Assembly (NCBI GenBank): GCA_016281775.1
Contig: JAEEJH010000127.1
Coordinates: forward strand, 1-56,732
Source of the DNA: Clostridiales bacterium
Lineage (GTDB): Bacteria > Bacillota > Clostridia > Oscillospirales > CAG-272
Reading direction: 5' to 3'
DNA: 56,732 nucleotides
The translations under genes were made by a program, and so were the position numbers. The notes under the pieces were generated by a model. That model did not search any database and was not told the DNA's origin. It saw nothing but the letters and a program-made list of their open reading frames with translations. This document shows, in pieces, positions 1-13,761 of the stretch; position 1 is the stretch's first letter; each line of letters starts with the position of its first letter.

Positions 1-131
1 ATCATTTTTCCGTGTTCCGTACTGTAATAATGCACCCCGTTCGAGCACTGCCTTTCGCACACGCGGCAGGTTATGCAGCGGTCGTAATTGCGAACGACCT
101 CGAATTCCGGATATATGAATTCGATTCCCAT
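1..131 (-). CDS. Partial (N-terminus only) glutamate synthase FMN-binding subunit with N-terminal 4Fe-4S ferredoxin motif
   Basis: Hand translation from ATG at 131: MGIEFIYPEFEVVRNYDRCITCRVCERQCSNGVHYY..., CxxCxxCxxxC motif; TGATG overlap with the upstream amidotransferase; runs off the window edge; not in the ORF track. Confidence 0.75.
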   Translation of the reverse strand, partial: MGIEFIYPEFEVVRNYDRCITCRVCERQCSNGVHYYSTEHGKM

Positions 132-1225
132 CAATATTCACCGTCCTTTACCTTAACGATAACCGGCTCGCCGCCGGAAGGAGCCCATATATTCTCCGCG
201 CACGGCTCCATTGCCCGTATCGCCGCTTCTTCGCTTGCTATGAAAACTCTGTCGTCCTTTTCGCCGACGACCATAGAGCGGAGCTTCAGCCTGTCGTTGA
301 GCGCCATAAGACCGCCGTCGAAGCCGAGAACGATCGAAAACGGTCCCGTTATCAGAAGATTCTGAAAAACCGTTCGCAGATAAGTCAGTTTTTTCTTTTC
401 ATATTCGTCTTTTATACCGTCGATCGTGCTCCAGAACGGCGCGGCGATCACGTTCGCCGCTTCGGTCATGGAGAGGCCCTGACGGCGTATGAGGTAATCG
501 AGGATATACGTTATGACCTCGGTATCCGTCTGAAGCGTGCATTTGTAACCGAACATTTCCATAAAGCGCCGGTTTGCGTCGTACGACGATATCTCTCCGT
601 TGTGTACCACCGAAAAGTCAAGCAGCGTGAACGGATGAGCGCCGCCCCACCAGCCGGGCGTGTTGGTCGGATATCTGCCGTGCGCTATCCAGCTGTAGCC
701 TTCGTACTCGTCGAGGCGGTAGAAGACTCCCACGTCTTCGGGAAAACCGACGGCTTTGAACGTACCCATGTTTTTGCCGCTCGAAAAGACGTACGCGCCG
801 TCCGTTTCCGTATTTATCTTCATGACCGTTCGCGCGACGAGTTCTTTTTCGTCTATCTGCAGATCCGACAGTACCGAACGCAGCGGCGCGGCGAAATAGC
901 GGTAAACTATCGGTTCGTTCGTTATCTCGGGGATCTTTCTCGTCGGGATCAGCTCGCCTTTAACTATTTCAAAGCGTTCTTTCAGAAACGCCTCGCACGC
1001 CTTGCGCGTATCGCGGCAGTCGTAAAACATATGAAAAGCGTAAAGATCTTTATATTCCGGATATATTCCGTATCCGGCAAAGCCGCCGCCGAGACCGTTC
1101 GATCTGTCGTGCATCGGTTTCATCGCTTCCGCTATGCCCTGCCCGGTCATCCGCTTTCCCTCGCGCGATATGACCGCGGCTACGGCGCAGCCTGACGGTA
1201 TTCTGATATTTCCTTCTTTTTTCAT
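131..1225 (-). CDS. Class II glutamine amidotransferase, stand-alone glutamate synthase (GltB-like) domain
   Basis: SG-C near the N-terminus, HDRSNGLGGG, HGRYPTNT, AHPF, VHNGEI, TDTE motifs; RBS GAGGAG. Confidence 0.85.
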   Translation of the reverse strand: MKKEGNIRIPSGCAVAAVISREGKRMTGQGIAEAMKPMHDRSNGLGGGFAGYGIYPEYKDLYAFHMFYDCRDTRKACEAFLKERFEIVKGELIPTRKIPEITNEPIVYRYFAAPLRSVLSDLQIDEKELVARTVMKINTETDGAYVFSSGKNMGTFKAVGFPEDVGVFYRLDEYEGYSWIAHGRYPTNTPGWWGGAHPFTLLDFSVVHNGEISSYDANRRFMEMFGYKCTLQTDTEVITYILDYLIRRQGLSMTEAANVIAAPFWSTIDGIKDEYEKKKLTYLRTVFQNLLITGPFSIVLGFDGGLMALNDRLKLRSMVVGEKDDRVFIASEEAAIRAMEPCAENIWAPSGGEPVIVKVKDGEY

Positions 1226-1237
1226 GATAAACTCCTC

Positions 1238-1298
1238 AAAAAAACAAAAAGGCGCCGTTGCCGCGCGAAAAAACGCGGCAATGAACGCCTTTGCTCAT
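1238..1298 (-). promoter_or_regulatory. ANTAR-like hairpin overlapping an intrinsic terminator (leader of the GOGAT operon)
   Basis: Minus strand ATGAGC-AAAGGC-GTTCAT (1298-1281); its 3' side is also the 5' arm of terminator GGCGTT..TTGCCGCG/CGCGGCAA..GGCGCC followed by TTTTTGTTTTTTT. Confidence 0.7.
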
Positions 1299-1305
1299 TG
1301 ACGGC

Positions 1306-1334
1306 ATTATAACCCATATCCTGCGTTTTGTCAA
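1306..1334 (-). promoter_or_regulatory. sigmaA promoter for the GOGAT operon
   Basis: TTGACA (1334-1329), 17 nt spacer, TATAAT (1311-1306). Confidence 0.85.
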
Positions 1335-1396
1335 TAGGTAAAATGAAAAAATAATAATATATGCAGGATTTTTTTGAAGAAATTGCAAAAAAGGGC

Positions 1397-1425
1397 TTGA
1401 CAAATCTGTTTTCGTGTAGTATAAT
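1397..1425 (+). promoter_or_regulatory. sigmaA promoter for glnA-amt-asnB
   Basis: TTGACA 1397-1402, 17 nt spacer, TATAAT 1420-1425. Confidence 0.85.
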
Positions 1426-1442
1426 GCCCCCATGATCAAATA

Positions 1443-1494
1443 AAAGGCAAGGGCGTCTTTCACAGATGTGGAAGGCGCCTCTTTATTTTTTATT
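1443..1494 (+). promoter_or_regulatory. ANTAR-like hairpin overlapping an intrinsic terminator (glnA leader)
   Basis: AAAGGC-AAGGGC-GTCTTT (1443-1460) overlaps the 12-bp terminator stem 1452-1463/1468-1479, followed by TCTTTATTTTTTATT. Confidence 0.7.
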
Positions 1495-1511: not shown

Positions 1512-3608
1512 ATGAAAACGGTATCTGATTATTTCGGCGTAAACGTATTTGACGACAGAGTTATGAAGGCGACGCTTTCGGCTAAAGTATATAATTCGCT
1601 GAAGCAGACGATAGACGAAGGTAAAGCGCTCGACGTGAGCGTCGCAAACGCCGTAGCTTCGGCTATGAAAGACTGGGCGATATCGAAAGGCGCCACGCAT
1701 TTTACCCACTGGTTCCAGCCGCTGACCGGCATCACCGCCGAAAAGCACGACAGTTTTATCTCTCCGTCGCCGGACGGCGGCGTGATAATGGAATTCTCGG
1801 GCAAGGAGCTCATTCAGGGCGAACCGGACGCTTCGTCATTCCCTTCGGGAGGACTGCGGGCGACGTTTGAAGCGAGAGGCTATACCGCCTGGGATCCCAC
1901 CTCGTACGCGTTCATAAAGGGCAAAACGCTCTGCATACCGACGGCGTTCTGCTCGTACGGCGGTCACGCGCTCGACAAAAAGACGCCGCTTCTCCGCTCA
2001 ATGGAGGCTCTGAACAAACAGGCTCTGCGTATCCTCCGTCTGTTCGGCAACGATACGGCGAAATACGTCCGTTCGTCGGTAGGTCCCGAGCAGGAGTATT
2101 TTCTGATCTCGAAAGAAATGTACGACGCCCGTCCGGATCTGCGCTTCTGCGGCAGAACTCTGTTCGGCTCGAAGCCGCCGAAAGGGCAGGAGATGGACGA
2201 TCACTATTTCGGCGCGATAAAACCGAAGGTCGCCGAATTCATGGAAGAGCTCAACGAAGAGCTGTGGAAGCTCGGAATAACGGCGAAGACCGAGCATAAC
2301 GAGGTGGCGCCCGCTCAGCACGAGCTTGCGCCGATATATACGACGACGAACGTCGCGACCGACCACAACCAGCTCACAATGGAGATAATGCAGAAGGTCG
2401 CGCAGAAGCACGGTCTTGCGTGCCTGCTGCACGAAAAGCCTTTCGCCGGCGTAAACGGCTCAGGCAAGCACAACAACTGGTCGATAGCGACGAACGAAGG
2501 TCAGAACCTGCTCTCGCCCGGCGAAACGCCTTATGAAAACGCTCAGTTCCTGCTGTTCTTGTGCGCTGTGATCAAGGCCGTTGACGATTATCAGGATCTG
2601 CTCCGTATATCCGTGGCGACCGCCGGCAACGATCACCGTCTCGGCGCGAACGAAGCGCCGCCGGCCGTGATCTCGATGTTTCTCGGCGACGAGCTGAACG
2701 CGGTGCTCGAAGCGATAGAGACGGACGCGCCGTACAAGGGCGCGGAAAAAACGCAGATGAAGCTCGGAGTGGACGTTTTGCCGAAGTTCAACCGCGACAC
2801 GACGGACAGGAACAGAACGTCGCCTTTCGCTTTCACAGGCAACAAATTCGAATTCCGTATGCTCGGTTCGTCAAACTCAATAGCCTGCGCGAACATTATG
2901 CTTAACGCCTCCGTCGCCGAAAGCCTTAAAATATACGCCGACAGACTTGAAGGCGCCGGTGATTTCGAGGCCGCTCTCCACGATATGATAAAAAAGACGA
3001 TAAAAGATCACAGGCGCATCATATTCAACGGCAACGGTTACGACGACGCGTGGATCAAAGAGGCGACGGAAGTGCGCGGACTGCTCAATTACAGAACGAC
3101 CGCAGACTGTATGCCGCATCTGCTCGACAAAAAGAACGTTGATATGCTCACGTCGCATAAGGTCTTCACGGTCGACGAGCTTCAGTCCCGCTGTGAAATA
3201 ATGCTTGAAAACTACTGCAAGACGGTAACGATAGAAGCCAACACGATGATATCGATGGCAAAGACCGGCATACTGCCCGCGGTCGCCGCGTTCGCCGCCG
3301 TTACGGCAAAGAACGTGATTACGAAAAAAGCCGCGGATCCGTCGCTATCCTGCGTTTACGAGACGGGGCTTGTAAAAAAGCTGACAGCGCTCACCGACGA
3401 GATAGCCGAAAAGACGGAGCAGCTTCAGTCGGAGGTAATAAAGCTTGCCGACGCAGACGGCATAATCGCCGAATCGGAGTTGATCCGCGACCGCGTTCTG
3501 CCGAAGATGTGCGAGCTCAGGCTCGCCGCCGACGAGGCGGAAACGCTTACCGCGAAATCTTACTGGCCTTACCCGACGTACGCCGACATACTGTTCAGCG
3601 TGAGATAA
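1512..3608 (+). CDS. glnA: Glutamine synthetase type III
   Basis: 698 aa; [79 protein letters not shown]. Confidence 0.95.
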
Positions 3609-3621
3609 GGAGGAATGATTT

Positions 3622-5388
3622 ATGACTTCGGAAAATATTGCAAAGCTCATTGAAGAGACCGTTACGGGCGAGGTGTTCGCCGTATGGTTTCTTATCGGCG
3701 CGGCGCTCGTCGTCTTCATGCAGGCGGGTTTCGCGATGGTCGAAACGGGTTTTACCCGCGCCAAAAACGCCGGAAACATCATTATGAAAAACCTTATGGA
3801 TTTCTGCATCGGTACGGTCGTCTTCATCCTGCTCGGATTTTCGCTGATGATGGCGGAAGATTACGTTTTCGGCTTCATAGGCGTGCCGAATCTGAAGATA
3901 CTGACCGATTTCGGCGGATTTTTAAGAGACGGAAACGCTCCGTCGTTCGTATTCAACCTCGTTTTCTGCGCCACGGCGGCGACGATAGTTTCCGGTTCGA
4001 TGGCGGAGAGGACGAAATTCATATCATACTGCATTTATTCCGGCGTTATCTCGCTCTTCGTATATCCGATCGAGGCAGGTTGGGTATGGAATCCGAACGG
4101 CTGGCTCGTACAACTCGGTTTCCACGATTTCGCGGGCTCGGCGGCGATACACTCCGTCGGCGGGCTGACGGCGCTGATCGGCGCGATCATGGTAGGCCCG
4201 CGCCTCGGCAAATACATAAAGGATAACTCGGGCAAAATAAAGAAAGTCAACGCGATACAGGGGCATTCGATAACGCTCGGAGCGCTCGGCTGCTTTATCC
4301 TCTGGTTCGGCTGGTACGGTTTCAACGGCGCGGCGGCGTGGGACGGCAATTCTCTTTCGTCGATATTCCTTACGACTACCGTCGCTCCGGCGGTCGCTAC
4401 CTGCACGACGATGATATTCACGTGGATCAAAAATAAAAAGCCCGACGTTTCGATGTGTCTGAACGCTTCGCTCGCCGGCCTCGTCGGCATAACCGCGGGC
4501 TGCGACGCGCTTGACGCTCTCGGTTCGAGCGTGGTCGGTATAGTCTCCGGTCTGCTCGTTGTATTCGTGGTCGAATTTCTCGATCTGAAACTGCACATAG
4601 ACGATCCGGTCGGCGCTGTGGGCGTACACCTTGCAAACGGCGTATGGGGAACGATAGCGGTCGGACTTCTTGCAAATCCGTCCGCTCCGGCGGGACTCAA
4701 GGGTCTGTTCTATACCGGCGATTTCCGTCTGCTCGGCGTTCAGACGCTCGGCATCGCCGCGATACTTGCCTGGACAGCCGTTATGATGACGCTGACGTTC
4801 TTCGTACTCAGGAAAACGGTCGGTCTGCGCGTGTCGCAGGAAGAAGAGATAAAAGGCCTTGACAAGACCGAACACGGTCTGCCGAGCGCATACGCGGATT
4901 TCGTACCGGCGGTCGAAAGCCTTGATTACGGCTATGACGGCGCCGTCGCGGTAAGCGGCGACACGCCCGAGGCGGAGGCGATACCGGTAAGAAGAGTGCC
5001 GGCGTTCGACGACGGCTCGCCGAAATTCACGAAGGTCGAGATAATCTGTAAGGAACCGCGCTTCGAATCTCTCAAAAACGCCATGATGGACATAGGCATA
5101 ACGGGTATGACGGTCACTCACGTGCTCGGCTGCGGCGCGCAGAAGGGACAGCCCGAATATTACCGCGGCGTGCCTGTTGAAGTGAATCTTTTGCCGAAGA
5201 TACAGATAGATATAGTCGTGAGCAAGGTGCCGGTCCGCCGCGTCATAGAGACGGCGAAAAAGGTGCTTTACACCGGCCACATAGGCGACGGTAAGATATT
5301 CGTTTACGACGTAGAAAACGTCGTAAAAGTCCGTACCGGAGAAGAAGGTTACGACGCCCTTCAGGACGCCGAATGGGGAGATCTGTAA
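3622..5388 (+). CDS. amt: Ammonium transporter (Amt) fused to a C-terminal PII domain
   Basis: MQAGFAMVETG, DFAGS..H, GWYGFNG, DDPVGAVGVH Amt motifs; C-terminal GMTV..V.GCGAQKG...LLPK and TGHIGDGKIF..VRTGE PII motifs in the same frame. Confidence 0.92.
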   Translation: MTSENIAKLIEETVTGEVFAVWFLIGAALVVFMQAGFAMVETGFTRAKNAGNIIMKNLMDFCIGTVVFILLGFSLMMAEDYVFGFIGVPNLKILTDFGGFLRDGNAPSFVFNLVFCATAATIVSGSMAERTKFISYCIYSGVISLFVYPIEAGWVWNPNGWLVQLGFHDFAGSAAIHSVGGLTALIGAIMVGPRLGKYIKDNSGKIKKVNAIQGHSITLGALGCFILWFGWYGFNGAAAWDGNSLSSIFLTTTVAPAVATCTTMIFTWIKNKKPDVSMCLNASLAGLVGITAGCDALDALGSSVVGIVSGLLVVFVVEFLDLKLHIDDPVGAVGVHLANGVWGTIAVGLLANPSAPAGLKGLFYTGDFRLLGVQTLGIAAILAWTAVMMTLTFFVLRKTVGLRVSQEEEIKGLDKTEHGLPSAYADFVPAVESLDYGYDGAVAVSGDTPEAEAIPVRRVPAFDDGSPKFTKVEIICKEPRFESLKNAMMDIGITGMTVTHVLGCGAQKGQPEYYRGVPVEVNLLPKIQIDIVVSKVPVRRVIETAKKVLYTGHIGDGKIFVYDVENVVKVRTGEEGYDALQDAEWGDL

Positions 5389-6971
5389 TGTGTTCGATTT
5401 TCGGTTACTGCGGCGAGGTCGCCGACCGCGCCGCGTTTGACAAGGGTTTTTCAAGAACAAAGTCGCGCGGACCGGACGACAGCCGCGTTATAAACGCGGG
5501 TAAAGGTCTGCTCGGATTTCACCGTCTCTCGATAATGGGGCTCACTCCGTCGGGCATGCAGCCGTTTCGCTGCGGACAGTGCTTCGCGGTATGCAACGGC
5601 GAGCTTTACGGTTTTGAAAAAGAGCGCGAAAAACTCATAAACAAAGGTTATACGTTCAACAGCGACAGCGACTGCGAGATAATACTGCCGATGTATTTTG
5701 AATACGGGGCTGAAATGTTTTCGATGCTCGACGCCGAATTCGCCTGCGTCATATACGACGGAAGGACTGACGAATTCATCGCGGCGCGCGACCCGATCGG
5801 CATACGCCCGCTTTATTACGGGTACGATGAAAACGGCGTGATCATGTTCGCAAGCGAGGCGAAGAACCTCGTAGGACTTACGGACAGGATAACTCCTTTC
5901 CCTCCGGGTCACTATTATAAGGACGGCCGGTTCGTTTCGTACTGCGATATCGCGAAAGTCGACGCCGTGTGCCGCGACGGTCTGGAGACGGCGTGCGAAA
6001 ACATCCGTAAAAAGCTCATTTCCGGCGTTGAAAAACGTCTGGTTGCGGACGCGAAGGTCGGATTTCTGCTCTCCGGAGGTCTTGACTCTTCTCTCGTCTG
6101 CGCGATAGCGGCGAAAAAGAGCGAGCGCCCGATAAAGACGTTTGCCATAGGCATGACGGCGGACGCGATAGATTTAAAATACGCAAAACAGGTCGCGGAT
6201 TTTATCGGCGCGGATCATACAGAGGTTTATATGACGCCGGAAGACGTCATATCGAATCTTGAAACGGTCATAGAACTGCTCGGAACGTACGATATAACGA
6301 CGGTACGCGCAAGCATGGGAATGTATCTCGTATGTAAAGCGATACACGAGAAGACTGATATACGCGTGCTTCTGACGGGCGAGATCTCGGACGAATTATT
6401 CGGATACAAATACACTGATTTCGCACCTTCAGCCGCTGAATTTCAGGCCGAAGCCGAAAAGCGCGTGAGGGAACTGCATATGTACGACGTGCTCCGCGCC
6501 GACAGATGTATATCCGTAAACAGTCTTGAAGCGCGCGTGCCGTTCGGCGATCTCGATTTTGTCAGATACGTTATGTCGCTCGACCCCGAAATGAAGATGA
6601 ACAGGTACGGCAAGGGCAAATATCTGCTCCGCCGCGCGTTCGAGGGGCTCGGATACCTGCCGGACAGTATTCTTTGGCGTGAAAAAGCGGCGTTTTCCGA
6701 CGCTGTCGGCCACAGTATGGTCGATTACTTAAAGGAATACGCCGTGACGAAGTACACGGATGAAGAATTTGAGAAAGGACGTAAAAAATACACTCACAGC
6801 CAACCGTTTACAAAAGAGTCGCTGTTGTACCGCGATATATTTGAAAAATACTATCCCGGCCAGTCGGATATGGTAGCCGATTTCTGGATGCCGAATAAAT
6901 CGTGGGATGGCTGCAACGTAAACGACCCGTCCGCGAGGGTTTTGTCTAACTACGGAAACAGCGGAAAATAG
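5388..6971 (+). CDS. asnB: Asparagine synthetase B (glutamine-hydrolysing)
   Basis: Start revised to ATG 5388 (MCSIFG, nucleophile Cys2; TAATG overlap); RGPD, HRLSI, CNGE, ARDPIGIRPL, LSGGLDSS, LTGEISDE. Confidence 0.93.
   Translation: MCSIFGYCGEVADRAAFDKGFSRTKSRGPDDSRVINAGKGLLGFHRLSIMGLTPSGMQPFRCGQCFAVCNGELYGFEKEREKLINKGYTFNSDSDCEIILPMYFEYGAEMFSMLDAEFACVIYDGRTDEFIAARDPIGIRPLYYGYDENGVIMFASEAKNLVGLTDRITPFPPGHYYKDGRFVSYCDIAKVDAVCRDGLETACENIRKKLISGVEKRLVADAKVGFLLSGGLDSSLVCAIAAKKSERPIKTFAIGMTADAIDLKYAKQVADFIGADHTEVYMTPEDVISNLETVIELLGTYDITTVRASMGMYLVCKAIHEKTDIRVLLTGEISDELFGYKYTDFAPSAAEFQAEAEKRVRELHMYDVLRADRCISVNSLEARVPFGDLDFVRYVMSLDPEMKMNRYGKGKYLLRRAFEGLGYLPDSILWREKAAFSDAVGHSMVDYLKEYAVTKYTDEEFEKGRKKYTHSQPFTKESLLYRDIFEKYYPGQSDMVADFWMPNKSWDGCNVNDPSARVLSNYGNSGK

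Positions 6972-12120: not shown

Positions 12121-13761
<1,641 letters not shown>

Follow-up and report, generated by a model that had tools for sequence, protein, structure and literature searches.

How are two nitrogen operons expressed when each is transcribed from a strong promoter straight into a terminator ahead of its own first gene? The question is raised by a 286-bp intergenic gap (1226-1511) between a GATase_2 gene of a glutamate synthase (GOGAT) operon and the divergent glnN gene of a glutamine synthetase (GS) operon, in 56,732 nucleotides (nt) of DNA from a Clostridiales bacterium of the order Oscillospirales (assembly GCA_016281775.1, contig JAEEJH010000127.1). This whole stretch, hereafter the window, is the complete contig C165 of a 2.58-Mb metagenome-assembled genome in 183 contigs, which, judged by its nearest relatives, comes from a rumen or gut member of the Clostridia. 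Both leaders in the gap hold a single hairpin with the type of six-nucleotide loop (hexaloop) that ANTAR proteins bind, and each hairpin overlaps the terminator that follows it. Five such units occur in the genome, and we conclude that they quite probably constitute a NitR/ANTAR nitrogen attenuation regulon, with an antiterminator made of one hexaloop hairpin and devoid of the upstream hairpin (P1) of canonical ANTAR targets.

The initial annotation had described perfect promoters on both divergent transcripts, and each predicted sigma-70 promoter indeed matches at 12/12 positions, with a 17-nt spacer. The glnN promoter (1397-1425, + strand) has TTGACA at 1397-1402 and TATAAT at 1420-1425, with a predicted start at about 1432, and is identical in a paralogous leader on contig C149. 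The GOGAT promoter (1306-1334, - strand) has TTGACA at 1334-1329 and TATAAT at 1311-1306, with a predicted start at about 1299-1300. Promoter-like sites number five in 551 nt, against 1.0 +/- 1.0 in shuffled sequence. The C-G-closed hexaloop hairpins with A at loop position 1 and G at position 4, which had been described as overlapping the terminators, were likewise found in both leaders. H1(+), at 1443-1460, consists of AAAGGC, the loop AAGGGC (1449-1454) and GTCTTT; it folds in isolation at -3.5 kcal/mol and lies in a covariance model match at 1444-1488 (43.6 bits). H1(-), at 1300-1279, consists of CAATGAGC, the loop AAAGGC (1292-1287) and GTTCATTG, with the core (CA)ATGAGC-AAAGGC-GTTCAT(TG); it folds in isolation at -7.8 kcal/mol and lies in a match at 1242-1297 (36.7 bits). 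The GOGAT -10 box ends 5 nt ahead of the extended H1(-) stem.

The intrinsic terminator of the glnN leader (1451-1494, +) has a 13-bp stem (1451-1480) followed by the U-tract CTTTATTTTTTATT (1481-1494), with a minimum free energy (MFE) of -26.9 kcal/mol and a z score of -3.6. That of the GOGAT leader (1289-1238, -) has a composite stem (1289-1251) and the U-tract TTTTTGTTTTTTT (1250-1238), with an MFE of -35 kcal/mol and a z score of -4.3; its inner stem differs in sequence from the C149 paralogue and retains the pairing. In both leaders the 5' arm of the terminator starts inside the H1 loop, at loop nucleotide G4, so that hairpin and terminator are mutually exclusive. The terminator folds, at about -25 (+) and -29 (-) kcal/mol, are far more stable than the hairpins alone, and termination is therefore the default state. 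The apical loop of the terminator in the window is the tetraloop AGAT. Terminator apical loops were also considered as second ANTAR loops (e.g., GAG-AACGGA-CTC in locus L010) and were rejected, as they are not conserved.

Comparison with relatives bears out the ANTAR target geometry recognized in the initial annotation, which had also proposed a covariance model. The model, R1, was built from 34 aligned units of about 30 species and does not include the hairpin stem. Positions C7, A8, A9, G11, G12 and G14, that is, both nucleotides of the closing pair together with loop positions A1, A2, G4 and G5, are invariant in the 34 units, and the closing pair is C-G in 34/34. The terminator helix includes neither A8 nor A9, and the terminator therefore cannot explain why these two are conserved. 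The pair next to the closing pair is always purine-pyrimidine (13 G-U, 12 A-U, 9 G-C). Beyond it the stems vary freely in sequence and yet stay paired. The hairpin helix is 100% paired, a figure that is partly built in because the units were partly chosen by a hairpin filter, and has double changes at 5/7 pairs; for the terminator helix the figures are 90.8% and 9/13 pairs. Both helices score far above all slid registers. Since the scanner had required a stem, bare CAANGGCG sites in 80 orthologous loci were counted as an unbiased control, and a stem of at least 4 bp was present at 33/45 sites near a following T-run, compared with 24/156 elsewhere. The model finds the unit in 74 of 151 genomes sampled from the same order, although these per-genome counts are slight overestimates, as some R1 matches are plain terminators. 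Seven loci (L003, L004, L009, L012, L014, L065 and L082) carry two full hairpin-plus-terminator units in tandem in one glnN leader, an arrangement that would sharpen the on/off response.

Within the genome, a search for further copies of the motif, also suggested at the outset, returned five units at 31-44 bits, with the next-best match at 23.8 bits. They precede two glnN-amtB/PII operons, two GOGAT operons and pyrG, so that all five sit before nitrogen or glutamine-amide genes. Two of them belong to a complete paralogous divergent glnN/GOGAT locus on C149 (2950-6620 of L002, a stretch of that contig), whose proteins share 86-89% identity with their counterparts in the window; either the loci are true paralogues on which the assembly broke, or two strains were binned together. 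The GOGAT operon on C149 comprises seven genes in the order GATase_2, Glu_synthase, Fer4, Pyr_redox_2, GXGXG, a GS-like gene and nitR. The fifth unit, with promoter, hairpin and terminator, lies on the - strand of contig C24 (15949-16027, about 2450-2528 of its stretch L116), before the cytidine triphosphate (CTP) synthase gene pyrG and then a purF-like amidotransferase gene. By its position before pyrG, the nitrogen regulon extends to nucleotide synthesis that consumes glutamine amide.

No ANTAR gene is encoded in the window, as had been noted. The suggested search for PF03861 proteins detected exactly one in the genome, a NitR-like protein on C149 (domain at 12203-12355, 56.8 bits). It is encoded by the last gene of the paralogous GOGAT operon, nitR (L002 11786-12370), and has 194 aa with a receiver-like domain, a coiled coil and an ANTAR domain. 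With nitR behind one of the five leaders, the circuit would be positively autoregulated. Among the 151 genomes, 64 have both motif and ANTAR domain, 10 the motif only, 25 the ANTAR domain only and 52 neither (odds ratio 13.3, Fisher p = 9e-12, a value that overstates independence, as the genomes are related). The motif precedes the ANTAR gene on the same strand, at a distance of about 1.7-7 kb, in at least 34 genomes; the operon there ends with the ANTAR gene, and the gene just ahead of it is again the GS-like one, so that the GS-like/nitR pair recurs as a whole. Judged from gene order, the glnA-nitR arrangement of the clostridial NitR system is present on C149.

Position 59 of NitR is Asn (VIINSPLP) and aligns to the acceptor Asp of Rv1626. 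The phospho-acceptor Asp is missing in 30/30 NitR homologues (Asn in 29, His in 1), and the acidic pair after beta-1 is kept in 0/30, with small residues instead. With Asn at the acceptor position, NitR is best read as a non-phosphorylatable pseudo-receiver of the AmiR kind, so that its control probably falls to a protein partner. The RNA-binding side of the protein is conserved: invariant His168 and Met176 align with Tyr164 and Met172 of EutV, of which the former stacks on G4 and the latter is essential (PMC8934654), and R147, R151 and K153 at the end of the coiled coil are also conserved. Immediately 5' of nitR, the GS-like gene (L002 10531-11742) encodes a 403-aa GS-I-like protein that keeps all metal ligands. 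In this protein the catalytic flap Glu (E304 in B. subtilis GS) is replaced by Lys and the Tyr before it by Ser, about 11 aa are deleted internally, and the C-terminus is short. We hypothesize that this Lys-flap protein, always encoded just 5' of nitR, is the best candidate for a non-enzymatic NitR partner or sensor.

On the observed anatomy of the leaders, their conservation and covariation, and their genomic linkage to ANTAR genes, we infer NitR binding and antitermination, as well as the direction of the response and the nitrogen signal. Each operon would be transcribed from its strong, constitutive-type promoter, and the RNA would, within about its first 10 nt, fold one hairpin of 6-8 bp with a C-G-closed AANGGC loop. 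Unaided, this weak hairpin would be displaced by the stabler terminator that starts at loop G4, and transcription would stop before the first gene. Under nitrogen limitation, a NitR-like dimer would bind the hexaloop and its closing pair and keep GGCG from the 3' arm of the terminator, allowing read-through into the glnN-amtB/PII-asnB and GOGAT genes. The proposed switch would have no P1 recruitment hairpin; its one hairpin, with a stem longer than that of a canonical downstream hairpin (P2), would stand at the extreme 5' end of the RNA. A bolder version, which we offer tentatively and hold to be possible rather than likely, is that one NitR dimer on one 5'-terminal hexaloop suffices for cotranscriptional antitermination in the main nitrogen circuit of Oscillospirales-type gut and rumen Clostridia, contrary to the need for two hairpins established for EutV, NasR and NasT, and that the Lys-flap GS-like protein, serving as a nitrogen (glutamine or 2-oxoglutarate) sensor and not as an enzyme, gates NitR, which has no kinase.

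Whether these leaders have one hairpin or two was addressed by comparison. The initial annotation had seen room for one hairpin per mRNA, and this holds in both leaders and in about 30 other species. It had also taken as established that the ANTAR substrate is a dual hairpin bound by a dimer. As far as a dimer needs two hairpins this premise is outdated, since the dimer in the EutV-RNA structure contacts a single hexaloop and the minimal motif was redefined accordingly; the premise stands in that P1 is still viewed as a recruitment hairpin needed for antitermination during transcription (PMC8934654). If the leaders were canonical dual-hairpin targets after all, P1 would have to come from an upstream start, or a weak P2 would have to lie in the terminator, where GGC-AACGGC-GCC (1262-1251, -) is the candidate. 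This sequence fits the P2 consensus found in nitrogen leaders of Desulfotomaculum and Pelobacter (Fig. S2 of PMC3369931), the + strand has a weaker promoter-like site (10/12) at 1328-1355, and the dual-hairpin model of Ramesh did match GS and amtB leaders in Clostridia. However, the P2-like hairpin has no counterpart in the + leader, in either C149 paralogue or in most orthologues, and such hairpins occur at chance frequency, so it was rejected as a true P2. The GGCGCC in the 3' arm of the terminator is forced by complementarity to the GGCG(T/C) 5' arm. As for P1, no hexaloop hairpin with a stem of at least 3 bp was found in 1362-1442 (about 1398-1442 by scan, the rest by eye). A strong promoter lies directly 5' of 33 of 41 units, and in 31 of these 33 the -10 box ends 5-17 nt (median 10) before the hairpin, which leaves only 0-10 nt of RNA ahead of it; the remaining eight units are mostly second copies in tandem arrays or between genes. 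Extra A..G.. hexaloop hairpins (stem of at least 3 bp) number 12 in the 41 units, at scattered offsets and at a frequency expected by chance (about 0.3 per unit), and these units do not show tandem P1 and P2 hexaloop hairpins joined by a linker of about 5-12 nt. We consider a dual-hairpin target very improbable here. The one-hairpin layout is supported by this comparison across units, and the absence of P1 is plausibly compensated by the longer stem and by the location of the hairpin at the 5' terminus.

The switch might instead be real and operated by something other than an ANTAR protein, either another RNA-binding factor or a protein-free process in which hairpin formation depends on the start site or on nucleoside triphosphates. 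The hairpin lies at or a few nucleotides from +1, so the choice of start could alter the length of its stem; about four motif-positive genomes have no detectable ANTAR domain; and one unit precedes pyrG, a gene that in Bacillus is governed by a nucleotide-sensing leader. Against this, invariant A1, A2, G4 and C-G pair combined with free stems point to a sequence-specific reader of the loop, the signature of ANTAR (PMC3369931), and the motif shows strong co-occurrence and co-transcription with ANTAR genes. The hairpin is also 11-21 kcal/mol weaker than the terminator and so needs stabilizing, and a permissive scan of 1100-1650 gave no Rfam family (riboswitch, T-box or leader), with a best E-value of 0.8 and all scores far below the gathering scores. 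We regard a switch without ANTAR as unlikely. A further alternative is that these are unregulated leader terminators, in the form of constitutive attenuators or of chance hairpins beside bidirectional terminators; in its favor, some covariance model matches in other genomes are plain terminators whose sequence happens to begin with CAAAGGCG. Only a conditional terminator makes sense at a site between a perfect promoter and the first gene that it drives, though, and neither the gathering of five units in one functional regulon nor an alternative hairpin that is conserved and covaries across about 30 species fits such an account, which we find highly improbable. Scarcely credible, finally, is the speculative suggestion in the initial annotation of a single dimer, which here would be NitR, that spans the two nascent RNAs and thereby couples GS and GOGAT expression. 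The divergent twin layout is kept in at least 24 genomes of the order, and the EutV crystal dimer touches the hexaloops of two RNA molecules; yet the authors of that structure judge bridging in trans during transcription to be kinetically unlikely (PMC8934654). Lone units (pyrG and several orthologous glnN leaders; L032, L046 and others), same-strand tandem units (L003, L004, L065, L082) and units between genes are common, and co-regulated genes that share one intergenic region are a simpler account of the divergent synteny.

The reading that we prefer, a NitR-operated single-hexaloop switch, has several points weighing against it besides the relatedness of the genomes and the hairpin filter mentioned above. 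All characterized ANTAR antiterminators (EutV, NasR, AmiR and NasT) need both hexaloops in vivo (PMC3369931, PMC10783516), and single hexaloops are expected mainly where transcription sets no time limit (PMC8934654). The transcription starts at about 1432 and about 1299 are predicted from the promoters. The nitR gene lies on a contig other than the window, and the loci, at 86-89% identity, could belong to co-binned strains. Ten of the 74 motif-positive genomes have no ANTAR domain even at E <= 10. In about five of these ten the matches are ordinary terminators, in four they look like real units and in one the case is ambiguous, and the four real-looking units come from metagenome-assembled genomes that are 85-95% complete.

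The genes downstream of the two leaders fit the nitrogen theme. Those 3' of the + leader (1512-6971) are glnN, the AmtB-PII fusion gene and the gene for asparagine synthase. Type III GS (GSIII), encoded by glnN (1512-3608, +), has 698 aa and a GSIII_N match of 271 bits. The fusion (3622-5388, +) is a single protein of 588 aa with a PII (GlnK-like) domain at its C-terminus (Pfam Ammonium_transp 394 bits, P-II 85 bits), and the glutamine-dependent asparagine synthase AsnB (5373-6971, +; Pfam Asn_synthase 243 bits) is encoded by a gene whose start overlaps the end of the AmtB-PII gene by 16 nt. Downstream of the - leader (1225-1, -), the first gene encodes a class-II glutamine amidotransferase of 364 aa (131-1225, -; Pfam GATase_2), which is the first subunit of a glutamate synthase of the split, archaeal type. 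The gene after it is truncated by the end of the contig, with its start alone present; the left end of the window (1-141) thus falls inside the second GOGAT gene. No GlnR/TnrA-type box (TGTNAN7TNACA) was seen in the intergenic region by eye.

Directly 5' of the glnN -35 box is an upstream element, TGCAGGA-N13-ATTGCAAAAAA (1362-1392, +), that is shared with other units. In the relaxed form TGCAGG-N8-24-TTGCAAAA it occurs three times in the genome, always at unit promoters (glnN1, glnN2 and pyrG) and ending 4-5 nt before the -35 box; the other two copies are at L002 about 5195-5160 (-) and L116 about 2602-2565 (-). The element may be a DNA operator, adding promoter-level control to attenuation, or an UP-like element. 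The intergenic region on C149 is longer than that of the window by about 170-190 bp between the divergent promoters, owing to a G-rich insert (L002 5196-5385), the 30-70-nt core of which is dispersed on at least 15 other contigs and resembles a small repeat of the repetitive extragenic palindromic (REP) or miniature inverted-repeat transposable element (MITE) type. Many copies of another repeat, ACCGTAGGGGAGCGGTCRCCGCTCCCGYTTCGAACGGTTACGT (about 40 nt), are present on contigs C175 (4697-11426), C147, C80, C158, C69 and others, at a spacing of several hundred bp that is unlike that of clustered regularly interspaced short palindromic repeats (CRISPR). It surfaced in the first hairpin-plus-terminator scan, which was too loose (217 genome matches) and was replaced by a loop-restricted filter and model R1. 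Public RNA runs gave low-depth contigs only, and one "RNA" run that covers the promoter region evenly is probably DNA.

Few RNA-binding regulators are as widespread as ANTAR proteins, and the 2022 EutV-RNA structure raised the question why antitermination requires two hexaloops although the dimer touches one. A direct test is offered by a large natural family of terminators, each guarded by one hexaloop hairpin, which is conserved in roughly half the genomes of an order of Clostridia from gut and rumen. If NitR antiterminates on these leaders in vitro, the recruitment hairpin could be dispensed with under conditions open to definition, for instance when the stem is long and the hairpin 5'-terminal. 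The units also outline what is probably the master nitrogen regulon of abundant gut fermenters, most of them uncultured (GSIII, GOGAT, AmtB-PII, AsnB and PyrG), and the findings point to a kinase-independent signal input.

A NitR/ANTAR nitrogen regulon is of a known kind, while the conserved single-hexaloop architecture is new and undescribed in the accessible literature, which gives no description of the RNA target of NitR. In C. saccharobutylicum, NitR governs GS and GOGAT, as summarized elsewhere (PMC6316151), and matches of the ANTAR type before Firmicutes GS, GOGAT and amtB genes were listed in 2012 (PMC3369931, Table S2). Common to the system of C. saccharobutylicum NCP262 and the present one are an ANTAR protein encoded directly after a glnA-type gene, GS and GOGAT as targets (glnA and gltAB in C. 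saccharobutylicum), and leader terminators. C. thermocellum carries the same cluster (Clo1313_2030-2036; PMC4676874), seven genes with the ANTAR response regulator last, as in the C149 operon. Unlike in these two species, the main GS here is type III (glnN) and the regulon adds AmtB-PII, AsnB and PyrG; the glnA-type neighbor of nitR also differs from its clostridial counterpart by Lys in place of the flap Glu.

With the dual-hexaloop systems EutV (eutP/G/S/A), NasR (nasF), AmiR (amiE) and NasT (nalA/nirB), the units share the A1/G4 hexaloop and C-G closing pair, a dimeric coiled-coil ANTAR regulator, the theme of nitrogen metabolism, and an antiterminator whose 3' half overlaps the 5' arm of the terminator (PMC3369931, PMC8934654, PMC10783516). 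In those characterized systems, loss of either hairpin abolishes or strongly reduces antitermination, and the nitrogen leaders of Desulfotomaculum and Pelobacter have clear dual hairpins, NNNAC.AAYGRY.GUNNN followed by GGC.AAYGAN.GCC (PMC3369931). Here there is one hexaloop per terminator, with a stem of 5-8 bp in place of the typical 3-bp GGC/GCC of P2, the hairpin lies within about 10 nt of the predicted +1, and the loop itself contains the start of the terminator arm. NitR also departs from the phosphorylated ANTAR response regulators of the EutV/Rv1626 type, as it has neither the acceptor Asp nor the acidic pair. It comes closest to AmiR of Pseudomonas aeruginosa, which has a receiver-like domain without phospho-acceptor, His at the position of EutV Tyr164, and kinase-free control by its partner AmiC; the similarity is weak (20-30 bits), and in place of a partner with the AmiC-type periplasmic-binding-protein fold, the only conserved neighbor of NitR is the GS-like protein.

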